Below are positions 7,441 through 53,531 of a DNA stretch of 64,000 nt, piece after piece (positions within the stretch are counted from its first letter, which is position 1; every line of letters begins with the position of its first letter). A program made the translations under genes and the position numbers. The stretch is from Dehalococcoidia bacterium (lineage in GTDB: Bacteria > Chloroflexota > Dehalococcoidia > Lucifugimonadales > QGNO01), in the NCBI GenBank assembly GCA_965249115.1, contig CBDFLI010000001.1:282908-346907 (forward strand). Direction: 5' to 3'. Below the pieces are notes generated by a model that did no database searches, was not told where the DNA came from, and worked only from the letters and a program-made list of their open reading frames with translations.

Positions 7441-8136
7441 ATGCCCTCCAAAGGACGGCGGCAGATAGTCAGATACGCCTTGTACAAGGCGACCCCGGAG
7501 TGGTTATGGCTTCCGGAGGCCGACCGTGGAGTTCAGAAGGCGGAGTTTGAGGCGATAGTGGAGGAGGCCGGCTCCAGCATGCGGGTGGAAAGCTACAGCC
7601 TTGTCGGGACCCGCGCCGACGCCGACATGCTGCTCTGGTCCATAGGCCACTCGTTGGAAGAGCACCACGAATTCGCGGCCATGATTAACCGCAGCAGAAT
7701 GGGAGCATACCTGGAGACGCCCTACTCCTACCTGGCTATGACGCGGCGCTCCGATTACGTCGACGACCACAAGCATAAGGGCCAGGAGGGCACAAGGCTT
7801 GGCATGAAGCCCGGTGACGCGCCGTATCTGATCGTCTATCCCTTCGTCAAGACACGGGCCTGGTACATACTGTCAAAGGAAGAACGGCAGGAGATGATGA
7901 GCGCCCACTTTGAAGTGGGCCACAGGTACCCATCGGTCCGTATCCACACCAGCTACTCCTTCGGCATTGACGACCAGGAGTTTGTGGTGGCCTTTGATAC
8001 CGACAATATGGAGGACTTCCTGGACCTGGTTATGGAGCTACGGGAGAGCCAGGCCAGCGCCTATACCCTCAGGGATACGCCGGTCTTCACATGTATAGCC
8101 CGGCCCATACGGCAGTGCCTGGACGCCCTGGGGTAG
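7441..8136 (+). CDS. chdC: Coproheme decarboxylase (HemQ/ChdC, chlorite-dismutase family)
   Basis: YLIVYPFVKTRAWYILSKEERQEMMSAHFEVGHRYPSVRIHTSYSFGIDDQEFVVAFDTDNMEDFLDLVMELRESQASAYTLRDTPVFTCI. ATG 7441 chosen inside track ORF 7378..8136. Confidence 0.8.
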   Translation: MPSKGRRQIVRYALYKATPEWLWLPEADRGVQKAEFEAIVEEAGSSMRVESYSLVGTRADADMLLWSIGHSLEEHHEFAAMINRSRMGAYLETPYSYLAMTRRSDYVDDHKHKGQEGTRLGMKPGDAPYLIVYPFVKTRAWYILSKEERQEMMSAHFEVGHRYPSVRIHTSYSFGIDDQEFVVAFDTDNMEDFLDLVMELRESQASAYTLRDTPVFTCIARPIRQCLDALG

Positions 8137-35656: not shown

Positions 35657-35791
35657 CCCGGTCTGGTTGTGACAAGGTTGCGGCCCGGTCTGGTTGTGAC
35701 AAGGTTGCGGCCCGGTCTGGCTGTGACAAAGTTGCGGCCCGGTCTGGTTGTGACAAAGTTGCGGCCCGGTCTGGTTGTGACAAAGTTGCGG
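35657..35791. repeat. 5 x 27-bp perfect-phase tandem repeat (CCCGGTCTGGTTGTGACAAGGTTGCGG)
   Basis: Units at 35657, 35684, 35711, 35738 and 35765, with 0-2 substitutions per unit. Located in the divergent promoter region between pgi/pmi and the O-antigen-ligase-like gene. Confidence 0.95.
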
Positions 35792-35913: not shown

Positions 35914-38142
35914 ATGTCCATCCGGATAGATGAAGCGCATCTAATCGGAGTACGGGCTTTGGTTTTCCTGGTCCTGTTGATGCCACTTGCCGTGACGGGT
36001 ACCTTCCCCTTCCCTGGTGATGACACGCTGTTTCCATTCATAGTTGGGAAGGCAATCTACGCCCGATTCTTGATCGAGCTGATTTTCGCCGCGTGGCTCA
36101 TCCTAGCAATGCGCAACGCATCTTACAGGCCTCCTCGCTCGTGGGTGTTGTGGCTTTTTGGAATATGGGTCCTTGCGAGCTTTGTGGCAGCCGTGGCGGG
36201 CGTCAGTTTCCAGAGGAGCTTCTGGGGTGACTTCCGGCGGATGGGTGGGGTGTTCGACATGGTGCATTGGCTGGGATTCCTCATAGTTTTGGTCAGTGTC
36301 TTTAGAAACCCCAAAGAATGGAATTGGCTGCTGAACGCCACCCTCGCCGTTGGACTGGCGGTGTCACTTCTTGGACTAAGCCAACACTTTGAAATCCAGC
36401 TTTTCCCCAGGTATCTCTGGTACCTTCAGTCAGCAGAAAGGATTGATTCCACTTTCGGAAACCCCACGTACGTGGGGGTCTATCTGATGGTCACAACGCT
36501 GATCGGCCTGGGTCTTCTGGCTCGGTCCTTCGAGCGCCCTCCGCGGCCATCGTCGGACGTACGCCGACAGACACGACCAGCATCGCGGAGGCGTGTGTCT
36601 GAGGCGAATCAGGGGGACGAGTGGATCTGGGTTTTGCGACTATTCTGGCTGGCAGCTGCTGCACTGGGTCTGTGGGTATTGACGCTGTCAGGCAGCCGGG
36701 GGTCCGCCATAGGCCTGGTAGTAGCGCTCATTTTCGTAGGGGTCGGGTACGCAGTCTGGGGCTACAACAGAAGATGGAGATATTTGACCGGCGCACTAGT
36801 GGTGGGAATTGTCGTGACTGTACTGGCTGCGCCGGTTGTTGGAGAAACGGCCTTATTTCAAAGGCTTACTGAGATGAACGTCTTGGTGGCGCGGTTGGAC
36901 CGGGTCCTGGAATTTGGGCTGGGAGAATCGTTCCACGCCAGGTATACGACTGCCCGATTTGGTATTGAGGCGTTCCTGCACGCTCCGGTCTTGGGATGGG
37001 GGCCTGAGAACTTTGCAGTGGCGTTTGACAGATTCGTGGATGGTCAACAGCTAACCTCAGCACAGGGCCTGGCCGACCAGGCGCACAACAAGTTCATTGG
37101 AGAGCTGACTACCAAAGGTTTTGTGGGCTTTGCCGCATACTTCCTGCTGATCGGATGGCTGTTCTGGACAGTCGTCCGTGCCGTTCGCGCCGAACGCATG
37201 GAGAGGTTGTTTGTATTGTTGGTGAGTGCGGCTTTCATCGGATATGTGGTCCAGAACCTAATGCTGTTTGATACCCCCGGTACCTTCTTGCTGTTCACAT
37301 TGCTGGTCGGTTGGCTGACAACCAGGGAAACGCAACTTCAGGCTACAAGTACCCCTTCGATGGGTGGTGGCGTCGGAGCGGGCGCTTCGGAAAGGGCCAG
37401 CAGCGGTAACAGACAGAATAAGGAGCGTGGGTCAGGACTACAGGGTTGGCTGGAAACACACAACGTTCGACCCGAATTGTTGGCTTACATCTCAGCGGTA
37501 TTGGTGGTCTTAGCCGCTGTAGTCAGCATTTATTTCAATGTCTATCGACCGTACCGTGCGGCCCAGGTCTTCCCGTTAACCGGCACGAGCATTGAGACCT
37601 TCTTCGCTCAAGCCCAGGACAGCTTTGCCGCCTTTCCACCTCTGGCCACTCTGGGTCGCCAGGTGGCGTTCGATACACTCTCAACTAACTGGGAGAAAGT
37701 AAATCCTGAATTTGAAGCAGCCCTGCTGGACCAGGTGCAATTTGAAGGCCAGGCTGCGATTCGTAGCGAGCCACAGAATGCGCGGTTGCGTATCAGCCTG
37801 GCGCATATATATCAGGCCGCCGGGGAAAACGATAGTGACTACCTTCTACTTGCAAGACCTCACGTAGAAGCTGCTCTGCAACTAGGTCCACGGCTTGTGG
37901 TTACATTGTTGGCAGCCATTCAGCAAGAAATAGGCGAGAAGAACTACTCTGAAGCGCTCATATTGATAAACTCCTACGACGGATTGGACGCTAACGTAAG
38001 AAACCACATCAGGGACTTGGGTGACGAGGTGCGAAACAGAATAATCCTGCAAGTCGGTCAGCAGGAGTACGATTGTCGCTGGGCAAACCAGCCGCTTGAC
38101 CTCACTGCCGAAGAGCGGGCCGAGATTCTTTGTAACCAGTAG
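35914..38142 (+). CDS. O-antigen ligase (Wzy_C)-family membrane protein with soluble TPR-like C-terminal region
   Basis: 742 aa, many hydrophobic helices. LTLSGSRGSAIGLVVALIF is the typical Wzy_C core. Confidence 0.7.
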   Translation: MSIRIDEAHLIGVRALVFLVLLMPLAVTGTFPFPGDDTLFPFIVGKAIYARFLIELIFAAWLILAMRNASYRPPRSWVLWLFGIWVLASFVAAVAGVSFQRSFWGDFRRMGGVFDMVHWLGFLIVLVSVFRNPKEWNWLLNATLAVGLAVSLLGLSQHFEIQLFPRYLWYLQSAERIDSTFGNPTYVGVYLMVTTLIGLGLLARSFERPPRPSSDVRRQTRPASRRRVSEANQGDEWIWVLRLFWLAAAALGLWVLTLSGSRGSAIGLVVALIFVGVGYAVWGYNRRWRYLTGALVVGIVVTVLAAPVVGETALFQRLTEMNVLVARLDRVLEFGLGESFHARYTTARFGIEAFLHAPVLGWGPENFAVAFDRFVDGQQLTSAQGLADQAHNKFIGELTTKGFVGFAAYFLLIGWLFWTVVRAVRAERMERLFVLLVSAAFIGYVVQNLMLFDTPGTFLLFTLLVGWLTTRETQLQATSTPSMGGGVGAGASERASSGNRQNKERGSGLQGWLETHNVRPELLAYISAVLVVLAAVVSIYFNVYRPYRAAQVFPLTGTSIETFFAQAQDSFAAFPPLATLGRQVAFDTLSTNWEKVNPEFEAALLDQVQFEGQAAIRSEPQNARLRISLAHIYQAAGENDSDYLLLARPHVEAALQLGPRLVVTLLAAIQQEIGEKNYSEALILINSYDGLDANVRNHIRDLGDEVRNRIILQVGQQEYDCRWANQPLDLTAEERAEILCNQ

Positions 38143-40971: not shown

Positions 40972-42246
40972 TTGAAACATCGCCTGGGGATTTTGCTGGC
41001 ACCGGGAATTGGCCTTAAGCGCTGGTTGGCACTCTTCGTTTTCGGTCTGGGGTTATTCGGACTTGGAGTCGCGTTCGTTATAGCCGTGCCAATTAGTTCC
41101 AAGATGTTGCCGGTCCTCCGTTCCGTTACCCTGTCGGGTTTCCCTCCCCTTGTCCGTGGCGTAGTTTTCATCCTGCTGGGTTCAGGCTTGGGTGGGTTCG
41201 CTCTTTACAGATTCTACCGCGTGTTCATTTCTGGTATCCAACTGGGAAACGGGAGGGTAGATATCCTCACCACGTTGGACCAAAGACGGCGGTTGCAGCA
41301 TGGTCTGCGCATAGTCGCAATTGGTGGAGGGACGGGACTAACTGCCGTGCTCAGGGGGCTTAGGCATGAGACAAGCAACCTGACGGCTATAGTTACGATA
41401 TCCGACGACGGTGGTAGTTCTGGGCGCCTAAGAGACGACCTTGATATCCCGCCTATGGGAGATGCCCGGAGTTGTCTCGTAGCGCTGTCGCAAGCCGAAC
41501 CTCAGCTGGAAGAGTTGTTCCGCTATCGTTTCACCGGTGAGTCGTACTTAGAGGGCCACAGTCTGGGTAATCTCCTTCTGGCGGCGTTATACAAATTGAA
41601 CGGAGGCATCTCCGAGTCGCTTGAGGCGGCAGCCCGGCTACTTTCTCTATCGGGCCGGGTTCTGCCCGTGGCAACCGATAGCCATATTGTTTTAATGGGG
41701 GAGACCACCTCCGGTGAGGTCTTGAAGGGCGAGTCGGCAGTTGGCCATGCCCCAAGCAGACTGCAACGCGTATGGATCACTCCGGTAGAGACCTCCGCTA
41801 GCGAAGCTGCATTGGAGGCCATTAGAAATGCCGAATTAATCGTCATCGGACCAGGGAGTCTCTACACCAGCATAATACCTAATTTCTTGATAGGTGGCAT
41901 ATCTGAGGCTGTTGAAGATTCGTCTGCCCCAAAGGTTTTCATCTGCAACGTAGCGACCCAGCCCGGCGAGACCGATGGATACGGAGTGAGGGACCACCTC
42001 GAGGCATTCAAGGCACACGCGGGCATAAATGTTACTCATCTGTTGTTTAACAACAAAGTGGAGTCGCTGCCAGAACAGCGTGGACTGACGCCGGTTGGTC
42101 CGGATTACCAGTTCGACGAGCTCGGCTGCATTGTGATCCAGGCGGATGTGATAGACAAGACCCACCCCACGCGTCATGACCCCCGAAAGCTCGCCCGGGT
42201 TCTTACAGCCGTTCGCCGCGGTTCAAAGCGAGCCAGTACCGCTTAA
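40972..42246 (+). CDS. yvcK: YvcK/CofD-family gluconeogenesis-factor-like protein with N-terminal TM segment
   Basis: IVAIGGGTGLTAVLRGL...AIVTISDDGGSSGRLRDDLDIPPMGDARSCLVAL. TTG start. Confidence 0.8.
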   Translation: MKHRLGILLAPGIGLKRWLALFVFGLGLFGLGVAFVIAVPISSKMLPVLRSVTLSGFPPLVRGVVFILLGSGLGGFALYRFYRVFISGIQLGNGRVDILTTLDQRRRLQHGLRIVAIGGGTGLTAVLRGLRHETSNLTAIVTISDDGGSSGRLRDDLDIPPMGDARSCLVALSQAEPQLEELFRYRFTGESYLEGHSLGNLLLAALYKLNGGISESLEAAARLLSLSGRVLPVATDSHIVLMGETTSGEVLKGESAVGHAPSRLQRVWITPVETSASEAALEAIRNAELIVIGPGSLYTSIIPNFLIGGISEAVEDSSAPKVFICNVATQPGETDGYGVRDHLEAFKAHAGINVTHLLFNNKVESLPEQRGLTPVGPDYQFDELGCIVIQADVIDKTHPTRHDPRKLARVLTAVRRGSKRASTA

Positions 42247-42267
42247 TCTCCCCGATTTGACTAATCT

Positions 42268-42939
42268 TTGAACGACGAGCATAATTGCGGTACTGTGCGT
42301 TCATCTTTTGAACATGACAACAATCTGGAAGAGGACACATACCGAGAGTTGAGCCTGCTCTCGGAAGTGCAGTCTACGCCTGAGACCACACAGCGACACC
42401 TGGCAACCAGGCTGCGTATCTCCCTTGGCTTGACTAACTTGCTTGTCCGGAATGTGGCGCGCAAGGGGTATTTGCGCGTCGTTCGAGCGGGCTGGCGCCG
42501 CCGTTTGTACGCACTGACACCGACCGGTTTCTCCCGGAAAGTCCAGCTTACCATTGCTTATGTACGGCGCTATCTAGACCACTACCGCTGGGTGCGCCAG
42601 ACCCTCAGGGAGGAGCTGGAGCCTCTTGGCCTCAACGTGGAGTCCCGGGTAGCGCTCTATGGGACTGGTGAGTTCGCTGAGCTGGTGTACCTGGCACTCA
42701 AAGAGTTAGGCGTAGAACAGTTGGATGTGTTTGCCCAGGATAGCGTGCCCAACGGTAGGTTTCTCGGTATATCGGTCCGCCACGTGGCGACCCTTAAGCT
42801 GGAGGACTACGATCGAGTGGTCGTCGGGTTTATCAGTGATGACCAGGGGACCATCATTGACATACCACTTCTTGGAGACGCTCGCGAGAAGCTGGTTACC
42901 TTCTTCGGGGACCGCGGAGCCCGCCATGATAGCGAGTAA
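42268..42939 (+). CDS. Winged-helix (MarR-like) regulator fused to a Rossmann-like C-terminal domain
   Basis: TQRHLATRLRISLGLTNLLVRNVARKGYLRVV (wHTH) followed by RVALYGTGEFAELVYLALKELG...YDRVVVGF (Rex-like architecture by eye). Confidence 0.5.
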   Translation: MNDEHNCGTVRSSFEHDNNLEEDTYRELSLLSEVQSTPETTQRHLATRLRISLGLTNLLVRNVARKGYLRVVRAGWRRRLYALTPTGFSRKVQLTIAYVRRYLDHYRWVRQTLREELEPLGLNVESRVALYGTGEFAELVYLALKELGVEQLDVFAQDSVPNGRFLGISVRHVATLKLEDYDRVVVGFISDDQGTIIDIPLLGDAREKLVTFFGDRGARHDSE

Positions 42940-43017
42940 TCTACGGTCTGAATTGACGGCGAAGTGCGTGCCATACCGGCCCATAGCGGCGGTTGAATTG
43001 TGTCTGGAGGTGCTGTG

Positions 43018-43617
43018 ATGGCCTTACGGTGGTATGTTGCTCGTACCAGACCCCTGACGGAGTACTCCGCCAGGAAAGTCATCGAACGTGCCGGCATTGA
43101 GGTGTTTTTGCCGTGTATCCATACTCTACGACCCCGCCCTGGTCGTGGAAATGCACCATTGTTCCCGGGATATATTTTCCTCCGCTATGACCTGGAGGAA
43201 CTGGGCTGGCAGCCCCTGGGCCGGTATCCTCAGCTTTTGGCGCTCGTAGCCTTCGATGGGGCCGTGCCGTACCTGCCCGATGAAGTCATCGCCGAGTTGG
43301 CCCAGCGCGTAGAGGCCTTCAACGAGCGCGGTGAACTATTGACCCGTTTCCACCCCGGCGACTGGGTACACGTTTCCATCGGATCTGTGGACAGCCTTGC
43401 TCAGGTAGTCGCCGAGGCAGGGTCATCGCGGCAACGTGTAAAGGTCTTAATGGAGTTTATGGGCCGCATGATCTCAGCCCAGGTGCCATGGCAGAGCCTG
43501 CGCTCGGCTCAAGATTACGGGCCATCCGCATATGGGATGCATAGGGGTCCTCGTCGGACCAGAGGAAGAGGCCGGTGGGTCAGGGGCTTCGGGCCCCGGG
43601 TTCCCGCCAGCGTGTAG
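43018..43617 (+). CDS. Specialised NusG paralog (NGN + KOW) with Arg/Gly-rich tail
   Basis: RWYVARTRPLTEYSARKVIERAGIEVFLP...PLFPGYIFLRYD (NGN); FHPGDWVHVSIGSVDSLAQVV (KOW). GGAGG RBS before ATG 43018. Confidence 0.75.
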   Translation: MALRWYVARTRPLTEYSARKVIERAGIEVFLPCIHTLRPRPGRGNAPLFPGYIFLRYDLEELGWQPLGRYPQLLALVAFDGAVPYLPDEVIAELAQRVEAFNERGELLTRFHPGDWVHVSIGSVDSLAQVVAEAGSSRQRVKVLMEFMGRMISAQVPWQSLRSAQDYGPSAYGMHRGPRRTRGRGRWVRGFGPRVPASV

Positions 43618-43698
43618 GGGACTCACACCGGTGGTGTAACGAACGCCTTTCGTCGTAGCAACTGCTCCGGGGGCGCTCCTCATAGCGGTACGAAACTT

Positions 43699-43914
43699 CC
43701 GGTTGAATTCCGGGATGGCGGAGCTGTGAGGTATGGCGTCCAAGACCCCAAAAAGCAAACAGTCCTCGGAGACAATGGGACCAAGAGGTGTGGAATTGAA
43801 CCTGGGCCGGTTGAATTCCGGGATGGCAGAGCTGTGAGGTACGGTGTCCAAGACCCCAAAAAGCAAACAGTCCTCGGAGACAACGGGACCGAGAGGTGTG
43901 GAATTGAACCTGGG
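43699..43914 (+). repeat. 2 x 108-bp tandem direct repeat in the operon leader (103/108 identical)
   Basis: Unit 1 is 43699-43806 and unit 2 is 43807-43914. Each starts with GGTTGAATTCC and ends with the near-complement GGAATTGAACC. Confidence 0.95.
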
Positions 43915-44536
43915 AGTAATCCCCGCTAGGGGCGGGAGCAAGGGAATACCTAGAAAGAATATCAGGCCGCTCTTGGGGCGACCCCTCATTGCCTGGAGCA
44001 TCGACGCTGCCAGGGAATCGGAATATATTGACCGGTTCGTTGTCTCCACAGAGGACCCAGAGATTGCGGAGGTGGCTACCAGGGAGGGGGCAGAGGTGCT
44101 CTGGCGGCCCGCCGAGTTGGCTCAAGACGATACTACCACCGTAGCCGTCCTCCAGCAGGTCCTGAAGGAGATTGACTCCGAGGTGGTGGTATTGCTCCAG
44201 CCCACCTCGCCGGTCCGAGTTGACAACATACTGGACCGCGCCATGGAGCGTTTCTTGGAGACGGGCGTGGACTCCCTCTCCACGGGCTATATGGTGAAGG
44301 CAGTTGAGTGGGGCGCTATGCAGAACACTCCAAGGCAGAAGATCAAAGGCTTCTTCTACGATGATGGCTGCGTGATCATCAACAAGGCGTGGGTTCTGCG
44401 TCAGGGCCGGTGGTTCGGCGACACACGGGAGCCGATGATAGTAGAGAAGCACTACAACTTTGAGATAGACGACGAAGTAGACTTTTGGGCCGTCGAACGC
44501 ATCATGGACAGGCTTCTACAGCGTAGCGAAAAGTAG
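43844..44536 (+). CDS. Acylneuraminate/ulosonate cytidylyltransferase (CTP_transf_3), copy 1
   Basis: GVIPARGGSKGIPRKNIRPLLGRPLIAWSI. The start is ambiguous (GTG 43844, GTG 43898 or TTG 43904) because the 5' end lies in repeat unit 2. Confidence 0.85.
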   Translation: MSKTPKSKQSSETTGPRGVELNLGVIPARGGSKGIPRKNIRPLLGRPLIAWSIDAARESEYIDRFVVSTEDPEIAEVATREGAEVLWRPAELAQDDTTTVAVLQQVLKEIDSEVVVLLQPTSPVRVDNILDRAMERFLETGVDSLSTGYMVKAVEWGAMQNTPRQKIKGFFYDDGCVIINKAWVLRQGRWFGDTREPMIVEKHYNFEIDDEVDFWAVERIMDRLLQRSEK

Positions 44537-44547
44537 GGGGTGCAGTT

Positions 44548-45447
44548 ATGGTAAGCGGGCCAACCAACAGTAGCAACGGTGTGGGTGTACAGGCTCCTGA
44601 GAGAGTGTTTATCATCGGCGAAATTGGCATCAACCACAACGGCAGCCTTGATATCGCCAAGAAGCTAATAGATATGGCCAAGGCAGTGGGCTGCGATGCT
44701 GTCAAGTTCCAGAAGAGGACCGTTGACATAGTTTACACGCCGGAGTTCCTGGCCGAGCCCAGGGAGAGTCCTTGGGGCGCCACGCAGCGAGAGCAGAAGG
44801 AGGGACTGGAGTTCGGCAAGGAGGAGTACGATGTTATAGACGACTACTGCCGCACGGTGGCAATAGACTGGTTTGCCTCCTCTTGGGACATCCCCAGCCA
44901 GACCTTCCTGCGGCAGTACGACCTCAAGTACAATAAGGTAGCCTCTGCCATGCTCACCCATACGCCCCTGTTGGAGACCATCGCCGAGGAGGGGAAACAT
45001 ACCCTCGTCTCTACCGGGATGAGCGAGTATCCGGATATCGACAGGGCGGTGGAGATATTCAGAAAGCACGATTGCCCTTTCACGCTGATGCACTGCGTAT
45101 CAACCTACCCCGCCGCCGAAGAAGACCTGAACCTGCTTTGCATACCGGCCCTCCGGCAGCGGTACCAGTGCCCCGTTGGCTATAGCGGTCACGAGGTGGG
45201 AGTCCTTCCTGCGGTGGTGGCTGTAATGCTTGGTGCGGAGGTGGTGGAACGTCACATTACCCTGGACCGGGCTATGTACGGGAGCGATCAGGCTGCGTCC
45301 CTGGAGCAGCGCGGTCTGGAGATTGTGGTCAGGGATATACGGGGATTGCGAGAGGTGCTGGGAGACGGCAACAAGAGGGTTCTGGAGAAAGAGATACCCA
45401 TCGCTGAGAAGCTCCGCTACTTTGCGGTTGGCGGTGGGACCCCCTGA
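44548..45447 (+). CDS. NeuB-family PEP-condensing ulosonate (phosphate) synthase lacking the C-terminal SAF domain
   Basis: 299 aa: FIIGEIGINHNGSLDIAKKLIDMAKAVGCDAVKFQKR...VGYSGHEVG...VVERHITLDR. Ends where the SAF domain would begin. Confidence 0.85.
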   Translation: MVSGPTNSSNGVGVQAPERVFIIGEIGINHNGSLDIAKKLIDMAKAVGCDAVKFQKRTVDIVYTPEFLAEPRESPWGATQREQKEGLEFGKEEYDVIDDYCRTVAIDWFASSWDIPSQTFLRQYDLKYNKVASAMLTHTPLLETIAEEGKHTLVSTGMSEYPDIDRAVEIFRKHDCPFTLMHCVSTYPAAEEDLNLLCIPALRQRYQCPVGYSGHEVGVLPAVVAVMLGAEVVERHITLDRAMYGSDQAASLEQRGLEIVVRDIRGLREVLGDGNKRVLEKEIPIAEKLRYFAVGGGTP

Positions 45448-50888: not shown

Positions 50889-51593
50889 ATGACCATGCAA
50901 CAGCAGCCCTGTTTAGCGATAATTCCAGCTCGTGGTGGCTCCAAACGGATTCCACGCAAGAATATCCGGGACTTATGTGGCAAGCCGGCTATCGCATACA
51001 CCATCGAGGCGGCGCTGCAAAGCGGTATCTTCTCCCAGGTCGTTGTGAGTACTGATAGCGACGAGATAGCTGAGGTGGCAGGACGCTATGGCGCGGACGT
51101 CCCCTTCATGCGGGACTCCAACCTGGCCGATGACTACACGCCGGTGTCTCTGGTGACTGTGGATGCCCTGAAAAGGCTTGATCCCCATGGTACGTCCTTT
51201 CAGCGTGTGGCACAGTTGATGCCTAACTGCCCCCTTCGGACGGCAGAAGACATCAGGAACAGCCACCGGCAGTTCATAGAGACGGGAGCCGATTCCCAGA
51301 TATCGGTGACCCGCTACGGATGGCTAAACCCCTGGTGGGCCATGACGCTGGGCGACGGAAACCGTATAGCCCTCGTCCATGATGTGCAGATGAATTCTCG
51401 GAGTCAGGACCTGCCGGAGGTCTACTGCCCCACCGGTGCCATTTGGTGGGCCAAGGCAGATGCATTGCGACGTGAAAAGACGTTTCACATACCTGATCGG
51501 ACCGGGTGGGAAATCTCCTGGCAGCGAGCAGTGGACATAGATACAGAAGAAGACTGGCAACTGGCCGAACTACTTATGCAGGTGCGCCCGTAG
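50889..51593 (+). CDS. Acylneuraminate-type cytidylyltransferase (CMP-nonulosonate synthetase), copy 2
   Basis: CLAIIPARGGSKRIPRKNIRDLCGKPAIAYTIEAAL...FMRDSNLADDYTP. Confidence 0.85.
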   Translation: MTMQQQPCLAIIPARGGSKRIPRKNIRDLCGKPAIAYTIEAALQSGIFSQVVVSTDSDEIAEVAGRYGADVPFMRDSNLADDYTPVSLVTVDALKRLDPHGTSFQRVAQLMPNCPLRTAEDIRNSHRQFIETGADSQISVTRYGWLNPWWAMTLGDGNRIALVHDVQMNSRSQDLPEVYCPTGAIWWAKADALRREKTFHIPDRTGWEISWQRAVDIDTEEDWQLAELLMQVRP

Positions 51594-51603
51594 AGTTAGG
51601 AAA

Positions 51604-52515
51604 ATGATAGCAACGGCACGACTGGCGCTGTATACCACAGTATATCCAGGCGTTGAAAAGTACTTGCTCGCCTGGCACGACTCCGTGCTTACCCAGACCG
51701 ACCGAAACTTTGATTTATGGATTGGCGTTGATCAGCTCAGTGTTGATTCGCTGAAACACGCAATTCAAGAAGAGGTAGGTACGGTATGGGTAAAAGGTGA
51801 TGAAGGAGACTCACCGGCCCTGGTCCGCCAGAGAGCAATCGAACTGATTGTTAGTGAATATCCCGCGGTGGTGTTTGTTGATAGCGACGACATACTGGCG
51901 CCAACACGAGTAGAAGCTGCCAGGGAACTACTGGAAAAGTATGATGTCATCGGCTGCGCGATGCGCATTATCGACGAAAAAGGGGATGATCTGGGGGTCA
52001 CTTTTAATGTACCCCAAGGCACAGACCTATCCAGCATATTGCCGCGGCACAACATTTTCGGATTGTCGAATTCTGCATACCGTTGCACTGTCCTTCGAAA
52101 TTGTCTGCCGATTCCCCTTGAAGTGGAATTGATTGACTGGTATCTGGTTACAAGGGCATGGATATCCGGGGCAACTTTGAGCTTCGACCACACTTCCCGA
52201 ATGGCTTACCGCCAGCATTCCAACAATATCGCGCGAGTTTTGCCTCCTTTCACACAGAATCAAATTCTCTCTGCCACGGAGCGTGTCCTTAACCATTACG
52301 ATCTGTTCCTGTCAAATGGCCAGGAGCTTGAACTGCCATTTAAACAGCACCTGACACACTCTCGTAACTACGTGGAAAGGTTTTGCACAGCCATGAGAAG
52401 TTCACGGGTTTTATTGGAGCGCTATGCGGAGGCCTTAAACCAATTGCCAGCAAAGCACGTCTGGTGGTCATGTGTTGCACACACAGAACTGGAGGGTATA
52501 TGGACAGGAAAGTAG
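51604..52515 (+). CDS. Glycosyltransferase family 2-like protein
   Basis: VVFVDSDDILAP (DxD-like). Family-2-like N-terminal half. No TM segments. Confidence 0.6.
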   Translation: MIATARLALYTTVYPGVEKYLLAWHDSVLTQTDRNFDLWIGVDQLSVDSLKHAIQEEVGTVWVKGDEGDSPALVRQRAIELIVSEYPAVVFVDSDDILAPTRVEAARELLEKYDVIGCAMRIIDEKGDDLGVTFNVPQGTDLSSILPRHNIFGLSNSAYRCTVLRNCLPIPLEVELIDWYLVTRAWISGATLSFDHTSRMAYRQHSNNIARVLPPFTQNQILSATERVLNHYDLFLSNGQELELPFKQHLTHSRNYVERFCTAMRSSRVLLERYAEALNQLPAKHVWWSCVAHTELEGIWTGK

Positions 52516-53531
52516 AACTGGCGGGACACTTGATTGGTCCTGGTGAACAGCCGTACATCATTGCGGAGATCGGGGCAAACCACAACGGGGATATGGCGCT
52601 TTGCCGTCGTCTCATCGATGCCGCTGTTGAATCTAGGGCAGACGCTGTGAAGTTGCAGTCATGGACAGATAAAAGTCTGTTCTCAAAGGGTGTGTATGAG
52701 GAGAGTCCGGACCTCCACGGCGAGGTTAGACGGTACCAGTTGTCTATCGAACAACACCTAGAAATACAAGAGTATTGTAAATCAAAGGGGGTCACCTTTT
52801 TCTCAACGCCAGTCTCAATGGCTGAAGCAGATATGCTCGAAGAAATGGATGTCCCCTTCTATAAAATAGCCTCTATGGACGTCAATCATTTACCCTTCCT
52901 TCGTCATGTTGCCCGTAAGAAAAGGCCGATGGTGATTTCCACTGGTATGGCTACGTTAAGTGAGATCGAACAGGCTGTAAACGTTGTTCGTGGCGAAGGG
53001 AACGAAGAGATAGTATTGCTGCATTGTGTTGCTCTTTACCCACCAGACTTCGATATTGTGAATCTACGAAATATTGGAATGCTTTCGGATATTTTTGGTG
53101 TGCCGGTTGGCTTTAGCGACCATACCGTTGGTATTGGGTGTTCGTTGGCAGCTGTTGCATTGGGAGCATGTGTTATAGAGAAGCACTTCACCCTTGACAA
53201 AAACATGGAAGGCTGGGACCACTCCATCTCTGCAGATCCGGCCGATATGGCACTACTAGTCCAGGAAGGACACAACATCCAGCGTTCCCTCGGCAATTAT
53301 AATCGTACGGTAAGTGCGGATGAGATCGAGAAAGCCAAGTTAATGCGGCCGTCTCTGGTGATGAGGCAAGCAATGAGAAGCGGCGACATTGTCACAGAGC
53401 ATGACCTGGACTTCAAACGTCCGGGCACTGGCATAAGACCTGATGAGATGCATTACGTTGTTGGTCGCAGGTTGGTGAAAGATGTGGAGGAAGATGAACT
53501 ACTTCTGTGGAACCACCTACAGGAGCGTTAG
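52500..53531 (+). CDS. neuB: Nonulosonic acid synthase (NeuB/LegI/PseI type) with SAF domain
   Basis: ATG 52500 inside the track ORF. PYIIAEIGANHNGDMALCRRLIDAAVESRADAVKLQ...VGFSDHTVG...VIEKHFTLDK. C-terminal SAF: GDIVTEHDLDFKRPGTGI. Confidence 0.9.
   Translation: MDRKVELAGHLIGPGEQPYIIAEIGANHNGDMALCRRLIDAAVESRADAVKLQSWTDKSLFSKGVYEESPDLHGEVRRYQLSIEQHLEIQEYCKSKGVTFFSTPVSMAEADMLEEMDVPFYKIASMDVNHLPFLRHVARKKRPMVISTGMATLSEIEQAVNVVRGEGNEEIVLLHCVALYPPDFDIVNLRNIGMLSDIFGVPVGFSDHTVGIGCSLAAVALGACVIEKHFTLDKNMEGWDHSISADPADMALLVQEGHNIQRSLGNYNRTVSADEIEKAKLMRPSLVMRQAMRSGDIVTEHDLDFKRPGTGIRPDEMHYVVGRRLVKDVEEDELLLWNHLQER

Follow-up and report, generated by a model that had tools for sequence, protein, structure and literature searches.

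What is the function of the leader that separates a gene for a specialised NusG paralog from a long sugar operon in the 64,000-nucleotide stretch of Dehalococcoidia DNA analysed here (the window)? Specialised NusG paralogs switch on long and costly operons, such as those for capsules, lipopolysaccharide and antibiotics, and to our knowledge only three of their recruitment signals are understood, namely ops DNA for RfaH, opsX with pause hairpins for UpxY and an RNA hairpin for LoaP. A preliminary description of this leader had pointed to a 2 x 108-bp tandem repeat with attenuator-like alternative pairings, and had read it either as a recruitment, antitermination or translational control element of the operon or as a recent duplication of the 5' end of the first gene. 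Our comparative analysis revealed a conserved element that starts 66 nt upstream of the repeat, with its first half outside it, and that had been overlooked. By analogy with characterized systems, this element (43633-43729) probably represents a pause-hairpin and ops-like loading site for the adjacent NusG paralog, partly duplicated along with the ribosome-binding site of the first gene; the repeat arose when the back half of the element was duplicated in tandem in one lineage. The published literature searched, reviews included, contains no description of the Chloroflexota NusG paralog or of its leader, and the conserved element is apparently undescribed. The element and the gene beside it comprise the following features.

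43018-43617, + strand: gene for the specialised NusG paralog, with a Pfam NusG NGN domain (E = 6e-13) and a C-terminal arginine-rich tail, PRRTRGRGRW.
43633-43729, + strand: conserved Chloroflexota leader motif in a single full copy, found as a covariance model match.
43644-43675, + strand: hairpin P1, with the stem 43644-43652 / 43668-43675, C43647 bulged and the loop UCGUAGCAACUGCUC, outside the repeat.
43697-43715, + strand: hairpin P2, copy 1, UUCCGG-UUGAAUU-CCGGGA, which includes the segment A1 of the preliminary description.
43717-43728, + strand: ops-like box 1, GGCGGAGCTGTG, with a GCG-R-AGC core and T at position 11.

The covariance model R1, which was built from 34 orthologous leaders with the window excluded and has 98 model positions, matched 43633-43729 over positions 1-98 of 98 with 64.5 bits (E = 7e-16; the E-values of R1 are rough, the calibration of the model having been shortened). 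This was the only strong match on either strand of the 64 kb, and it starts 16 nt past the stop codon of the paralog gene. Full-length matches to R1 were found in 42 of 80 related NusG-paralog loci, all of them on the strand of the paralog and immediately beside its gene, on the 3' side in Dehalococcoidia and on the 5' side in Anaerolineae, Chloroflexia and Caldilineales. In the gaps of related loci the motif follows one order: an ACAAYGG-like lead-in, P1, a spacer that often holds CAUAG, P2, 0-3 nt, and GGCG-R-AGC with two variable bases and T. A second metagenome scan with the P1 loop pattern returned mainly chance matches in high-GC coding sequence and about 9 true leaders. Nothing relevant in Rfam 15, the JUMPstart family included, matched the whole window at gathering thresholds, the region 42800-44100 at permissive thresholds or 13 related loci.

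Covariation was pronounced in P1, where 88.7% of the cells were paired compared with 36-46% once the partner columns were slid, and where 55 compensatory cells stood against 20.6 in shuffles, with none of 500 shuffles reaching the observed value. The loop positions GU.G.AGC...GCUCC are invariant in 51 of 51 aligned leaders, and the loop consensus across related loci is UCGUAGCC-NNN-GCUCCG. The stem in the window contains G-U pairs (UUU opposite GGG) that on the other strand would be A-C mismatches, which fits an RNA structure on the + strand. The sequence of P2 is unrelated from locus to locus, and a single column-wise structure was unattainable on MAFFT or covariance model alignments, since stem and loop lengths vary; P2 was evaluated by per-sequence folding against shuffles and control windows. 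The mean z was -1.86 in 35 loci and -0.25 in 140 control windows (Mann-Whitney p = 5e-9). A hairpin equivalent to P2 ends 0-3 nt ahead of the box in 38 of 40 leaders and about 1-2 nt ahead of it in the window, where copy 1 has a folding energy of -7.7 kcal/mol and a pairing probability of 0.92-0.97 in the leader ensemble.

The box is strongly represented in leaders that were selected by the P1 pattern alone: 30 of 41 carry it in its strict form (chance expectation about 1%), and T11 is present in 32 of 40 leaders. The 12-mer that had earlier been noted as a weak ops match, and that does agree with ops at 7 of 10 specified positions, proved to be the most conserved box of the leader element (family consensus GGCGRAGCnnT). 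The base or bases in the loop of GCG...AGC vary by lineage, as indicated by locus L028 (2040-2060), whose box GGCGGTAGC equals the E. coli ops core, by locus L142 (minus strand, 7501-7598) with GGCGTAGC, and by several Anaerolineae leaders that carry GGCGGCGC in place of the usual box.

Further pairing was noticed around the box. The segment CCUCAUAGC (43678-43686) is perfectly complementary over 9 bp to GCUGUGAGG (43722-43730), and in the minimum free energy fold P2 and one half of the box lie inside this helix; a CAUAG-like stretch past P1 and GCUAU/GCYRU past the box recur in orthologues. The 9-bp pairing was rejected as a part of the element, as its conservation was not seen in a by-eye look at several orthologues.

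The NGN domain bears out the earlier statement that a NusG paralog gene lies immediately upstream of the leader, though the protein scores under the cut-offs of the curated models for RfaH (TIGR01955, 60.1 bits, cut-off 144.5), UpxY (NF033644, 53.6 bits, cut-off 100) and LoaP (NF033641, 27.7 bits, cut-off 125). Homologues of the paralog begin MALxWYVART, and in the tail (43552-43581, residues ~178-187) R179, R180, T181, R182, G183 and R186 are invariant in 35 homologues. The AlphaFold2 model of the paralog has a confident NGN domain and a C-terminal domain whose beta strands, at residues 116-154, are of low confidence (predicted local distance difference test <50). The closest relatives of the protein, at 50-60% identity, come from Dehalococcoidia and other Chloroflexota metagenome-assembled genomes, and the nearest among species-representative genomes shares only 58% protein identity. 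In the 80 related loci the recurring gene order is a winged-helix regulator, the NusG paralog, a gap of 100-250 nt and the first biosynthetic gene. Motif and tail were both present in 40 of these loci and both lacking in 28; the tail alone was found in 10 and the motif alone in 2, both with incomplete open reading frames (ORFs). This distribution suggests that the tail of the paralog and the RNA element belong together, and a motif that adjoins a tail-bearing paralog supports the proposal of a genuine cis element, linked to the NusG paralog and overlapped by the repeat.

In the mechanism that we propose, RNA polymerase arriving from upstream would transcribe P1 and P2 and would pause at the box, with P2 acting as a stabilising pause hairpin. 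The non-template strand at the pause would expose the GCG-R-AGC element, where the upstream-encoded NusG paralog may load, its arginine-rich tail possibly holding the P1 RNA as a tether, and the paralog would then carry the polymerase through the ~19-kb sugar operon. Hairpin-stabilised pauses lie about 11-12 nt from the hairpin base, and T11 of the box, at ~13 nt from the base of P2, is close to this usual distance. Non-template hairpins of GCG/AGC together with upstream pause hairpins recruit RfaH and UpxY (PMC11685472); GCG...AGC forms the non-template DNA hairpin of E. coli ops and is found as well in Bacteroides opsA, opsB and opsE, with nascent-RNA pause hairpins just upstream that aid the loading of UpxY (PMC11685472, Saba et al. 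2024). LoaP requires a leader RNA hairpin, which gives a precedent for the binding of such RNA by a NusG paralog (PMC12691694).

The duplication adds to this arrangement a second set of features.

43699-43806, + strand: repeat unit 1 (Tandem Repeats Finder, a second repeat finder, direct comparison).
43807-43914, + strand: repeat unit 2 (the same three sources).
43807-43821, + strand: hairpin P2, copy 2, CCGG-UUGAAUU-CCGG, two base pairs shorter than copy 1 and including the segment A2.
43825-43836, + strand: ops-like box 2, GGCAGAGCTGTG, with A instead of G at position 4 (the GGCAGAGC variant).

Tandem Repeats Finder described 43699-43914 as an array of period 108 with 2.0 copies, 95% matches, 0 indels and a score of 397, in agreement with an independent repeat search, and direct comparison confirmed that the units are identical at 103 of 108 positions; "recent duplication of the gene's 5' end" is a correct description of the repeat itself. 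Both edges are sharp, similarity dropping off abruptly on either side. The left end (43699) falls within the P2 stem, and P1 was therefore left out; the right end lies 11 nt into the first gene, and P2, the box, the spacer and the ribosome-binding site with the start codon were copied. At unit 2, R1 aligned only with its 3' part, P2 and box, and no P1 (43769-43837, 12.1 bits, E = 0.2), so that unit 2 is a second, incomplete module and not a full member of the motif. Its P2 copy has -6.0 kcal/mol in isolation and is unformed in the ensemble of the full leader. The duplication would thus have supplied a second, incomplete loading module with the box GGCAGAGC as well as a copied translation start opening a short ORF: the copied ribosome-binding region in unit 1 has a Shine-Dalgarno-like AGAGGTG (43784-43790) and TTG 43796, from which a putative 13-codon ORF would run to the TGA at 43835-43837. 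The duplication in the window is most likely neutral or only mildly modulatory.

Related loci carry one leader beside the NusG-paralog gene, and a second downstream box was found in only 3 of 43 leaders, those of the window, L055 and L076. In the latter two the module of P2 and box was tandemly duplicated independently (L055:300-385 and L076:2700-2790), with a period of ~41-43 nt; L076 has two hairpins of unlike sequence, each of which folds, and a second box of the variant seen in box 2 of the window. Module duplication recurs and may at times be kept, a single module being the rule, with 39 of 42 related leaders carrying just one.

The five differences between the units (43720, 43734, 43737, 43776 and 43783) are transitions in every case, and all of them lie in CpG dinucleotides (CpG to TpG/CpA), with 5 of the 8 CpGs of the unit and 0 of 92 other positions affected (P ~7e-5); the G-to-A change in box 2 is one of the five. 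The pattern points either to real C-to-T deamination due to CpG methylation or to consensus noise at methylated CpG in a long-read assembly. Real deamination fits the window-wide ratios of observed to expected dinucleotides, which are 0.875 for CpG and 1.09-1.10 for TpG/CpA, a mild depletion and excess, respectively. Whichever cause holds, the CpG state is likely the true or ancestral one. Four features at the start of the operon are read with this in mind.

43904-44536, + strand: cytidylyltransferase of the CMP-nonulosonic acid synthetase type, first gene of the operon (Pfam CTP_transf_3, TIGR03584).
43733-43837, + strand: upstream ORF (uORF) of 34 codons, whose ATG depends on the T at 43734 (unit 2 has ACG).
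43792-43802, + strand: element B1, inside the copied ribosome-binding region.
43900-43917, + strand: element B2, extended on its 3' side, which is complementary to 43695-43711 and spans TTG 43904.

Because CTP_transf_3 and TIGR03584 match the called 230-aa ORF from residue 24 onward (profile position 2), and the first genes of loci L001 and L002 begin MSAIVAIPAR, the predicted start of the enzyme is most likely TTG 43904, 7 nt past the GAGG of the Shine-Dalgarno sequence AGAGGTG (43892-43898), with GTG 43898 as the alternative. This N-terminus is consistent with the earlier claim that B2 covers both plausible start codons. The uORF is present as had been claimed and shares its peptide with the N-terminal extension of the cytidylyltransferase ORF of 230 codons (43844-44536), which opens at GTG 43844. 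The uORF ATG and this GTG each hang on one CpG-to-TpG difference between the copies. The CpG state reads GGT ACG GCG TCC and contains neither ATG 43733 nor GTG 43844, the first in-frame start past the TGA being GTG 43898; hence the uORF and the "N-terminal extension" are probably secondary, and their start codons would have arisen, or been miscalled, at CpG sites after the duplication. Annotation of this locus calls for caution, since both the uORF and the 230-aa ORF, as called, hinge on CpG transitions.

The segments on which the proposed pairings were based are likewise where they had been placed: A1 (43701-43711) and A2 (43809-43819) read GGTTGAATTCC, and B1 and B2 are the reverse complement with one central mismatch, giving 10/11 complementarity. 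Such a match is expected about once per 64-kb window on both strands, so its presence inside a 108-nt unit is not due to chance. A corresponds to the inner part (stem and loop) of P2, a conserved local hairpin, and B to the region around the start codon. An extended A1:B2 pairing of 16 bp (one mismatch, one bulge; -21.3 kcal/mol) joins 43695-43711 with 43900-43917. Both ends of the duplicated segment sit at paired positions of this helix, which may reflect either an ancestral masking of the start codon or the event that created the duplication.

These pairings could form a translational switch. A:B pairing, in competition with P2 and its A segment, would mask the start codon in B2; ribosomes that had initiated at the copied start or on the uORF would run through A2 and release B2; and translation of the operon would in this way be tied to the loading of the paralog or to ribosome supply. 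Isolated A:B duplexes are indeed strong (-17 to -21.5 kcal/mol), and the complementarity of P2 to downstream sequence in the window (z = -2.9) was equalled in a single shuffle out of 200 and, L076 aside, stands alone among 30 leaders. B2 spans TTG 43904 and GTG 43898, the stop of the uORF (43835-43837) overlaps an SD-like GAGG upstream of GTG 43844, and the independent module duplications in L055 and L076 speak for such a switch as well. We nevertheless regard it as unlikely. The ensemble pairing probabilities are ~0 for A1:B1, 0.11 for B1:A2 and 0.014 for A2:B2, compared with up to 0.97 for P2, and the 343-nt leader, whose folding had been suggested as a check, is unremarkable, its fold being no more stable than that of shuffled sequence (z = -0.46). 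The complementarity is missing from the orthologues: in 29 orthologous leaders the P2 region gave a mean z of 0.05 against the next 140 nt, and B is without counterpart. The uORF ATG and GTG 43844 rest on the single CpG transitions described above, and the locus had been picked for this very feature, which inflates the 1-in-200 figure.

The loading site reading has its own difficulties. It leaves unexplained the 16-bp complementarity between P2 and the start codon, which is unlikely by chance, and L076, with its two differing hairpins, hints at some use for a second module. Phylogeny confounds the joint occurrence of motif and tail. The box is without T6, which is the ops base recognised by RfaH; the operon yielded no terminators above chance; and the leader might lack transcription from upstream. 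Pausing, loading of the paralog and antitermination we infer from sequence analogy only.

Quite improbable is the explanation that P1, P2 and the box are unrelated to the NusG paralog and represent either an independent cis-regulator, such as a riboswitch or a protein-binding leader in glycan operons, or else the 3'-terminal part of the paralog mRNA. It draws on the position of the motif right past the paralog stop codon in Dehalococcoidia, but adjacency and strand are kept in both the 5' and the 3' layout, the motif is absent from all 28 loci with a tail-less paralog, the box resembles ops, and no U-tract follows P1.

It is decidedly improbable that the second unit, or the differences between the units, are an artefact of assembly or base calling and that the true genome has one copy or two identical copies. 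The restriction of all five differences to CpG is what consensus noise at methylated CpG would be expected to produce in long reads, and no second genome carrying the repeat sequence turned up among species-representative genomes or in the metagenome collection, where an exact 26-mer from the repeat unit had 0 matches. The junctions are clean, however, without indels; systematic errors ought to strike both copies equally; the mild CpG depletion with TpG/CpA excess in the window fits real deamination; and assemblies more usually collapse repeats than expand them.

A classical transcription attenuator, with alternative 1:2, 2:3 and 3:4 hairpins deciding on termination ahead of the first gene, has hardly any probability in spite of the four-element topology and the short upstream ORF that had suggested it. 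P2 dominates the ensemble and the proposed pairings are of low predicted occupancy, no U-tract follows B1, A2 or B2, no terminator-like site was found on the + strand within 42000-45000, and the uORF is without a run of regulatory codons. The preliminary description had named missing conservation of the A/B pairing in orthologous leaders as grounds for giving up its reading; the pairing is absent from 29 of them, which refutes a conserved attenuator by that description's own measure. Finally, the notion that each 108-bp unit is a small mobile element, similar to a miniature inverted-repeat transposable element and bounded by 11-bp inverted repeats, is the least probable, for although inverted repeats lie near the ends of each unit, there are 0 further copies in the 64-kb window and 0 exact matches in the metagenome collection, the flanks are without target-site duplication, and the unit start aligns in register with single-copy leaders of other genomes.

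Upstream of the paralog gene lies one more gene of the recurring order.

42268-42939, + strand: gene for a winged-helix regulator, MarR_EPS-like (Pfam HTH_24; TIGR04176 MarR_EPS below cut-off).

The regulator gene abuts the paralog gene in most orthologous loci, and the gene order is the same in loci L001-L031. The best sigma-70-like promoter of the region (42257-42285, TTGACT, 17 nt, CATAAT, 10/12) overlaps the called TTG start of the regulator (42268), which probably starts further downstream, and regulator, paralog, leader and operon may share this promoter. Promoter and terminator scans of the leader and the operon gave nothing above shuffled expectation. The 78-nt gap ahead of the paralog ATG is unusual, as regulator and paralog genes abut or overlap in most orthologous loci, and 42977-43022 contains CATAGCGG..CGGTTGAATT..GCTGTGA, which resembles the leader from 43681 on. 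A third, older partial copy of the leader upstream of the paralog start (42981-43018) was considered and is unproven, its alignment score of 26 being equalled elsewhere in the window and the covariance model being blind to it.

The operon downstream comprises ~19 kb of co-directional (+ strand) sugar-nucleotide and glycan genes, encoding two cytidylyltransferases, two NeuB-type synthases, aminotransferases, dehydrogenases, a formyltransferase, a nucleotidyltransferase, a dehydratase and a glycosyltransferase. The NeuB-family synthases (44548-45447 and 52383-53531) are paired with cytidylyltransferases in 43904-45447 and 50889-53531, which suggests two nonulosonic acid pathways, or one duplicated pathway, in the operon. 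The same polysaccharide locus begins with a Wzy/O-antigen-ligase-like gene (35914-38142), and ~120 nt upstream of it, in the divergent intergenic region, a 27-bp unit (CCCGGTCTGGTTGTGACAAAGTTGCGG) is repeated five times in tandem with 97% identity (35657-35791), possibly as an array of regulator-binding sites.

The locus points to a fourth family of recruitment systems, apparently undescribed, in several Chloroflexota classes, with a cis element that is cleanly defined and searchable and whose presence tracks the arginine-rich tail on the protein. It raises the question of whether one factor can read non-template DNA and nascent RNA together. Tentatively, and with more doubt than confidence, Chloroflexota may be considered to own a class of NusG paralog that joins two modes of recruitment, its NGN domain reading ops-like non-template DNA at a hairpin-stabilised pause, as in RfaH and UpxY, and its fused RRTRGRGRW tail gripping the P1 RNA, as in lambda N/boxB and LoaP; here the loading module duplicated with the start of the first gene could form a two-site loader, with the A/B pairings also gating translation. 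The repeat is of lesser weight, a natural two-module variant to set beside one-module leaders and ordinary on its own. The part worth following is the conserved element with the tail-bearing paralog, rather than the attenuator-like pairings or the repeat alone.

Compared with known systems, the leader shares with trp/his-type leader-peptide attenuators four segments able to pair 1:2, 2:3 and 3:4 and a short upstream ORF, but it has no terminator, no regulatory codons and no conservation of these pairings, and its segment 1 belongs to a separate conserved hairpin. The nut site of phage lambda (boxA/boxB) and the N protein offer an analogy for the tail and P1, in that an arginine-rich peptide and an RNA hairpin tether an antitermination factor to polymerase; in Chloroflexota the arginine-rich stretch is fused to a NusG paralog, its binding is putative, and no boxA-like element was recognised. 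LoaP, with the leader hairpin of dfn and mln, is alike as a NusG paralog that needs a small leader RNA hairpin and serves as precedent for a protein that would bind P1. The LoaP hairpin has a UNCG tetraloop, whereas P1 has a conserved loop of ~15 nt and the loop of P2 reads UUGAAUU; a NusA-dependent terminator was not identified here, and the paralog is under the LoaP cut-off.

Judged by the curated models and by its leader, the locus resembles RfaH/ops and UpxY/opsX while lying outside the RfaH, UpxY and LoaP families as those models delimit them. It differs from UpxY/opsX of Bacteroides in that no UpxZ-like gene follows the paralog in the window, where the next gene encodes the cytidylyltransferase, in that the Dehalococcoidia paralog gene lies upstream of the leader and not after it, in the extra P1 hairpin with its invariant loop, and in a score under the UpxY cut-off. 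Both systems have a paralog encoded within the polysaccharide locus that it serves, and a hairpin directly upstream of an ops-like element with GCG/AGC stems, a resemblance that here is one of sequence. Unlike in RfaH/ops (JUMPStart) of Enterobacteria, the ops consensus GGCGGTAGnnTG is only partly matched in the window leader (7/10 at 43717-43728), the usual Chloroflexota box carries a single A or G in its loop in place of the GT of ops and hence lacks T6, two conserved RNA hairpins stand ahead of the box without an Rfam JUMPstart match, and the paralog, under the RfaH cut-off, carries an arginine-rich tail and is encoded beside its target. What the Chloroflexota loci have in common with RfaH/ops is a NusG paralog dedicated to long polysaccharide operons and a leader element of ~12 nt that opens GGCGG, with GCG...AGC and T at position 11, which in L028 attains the ops core itself.

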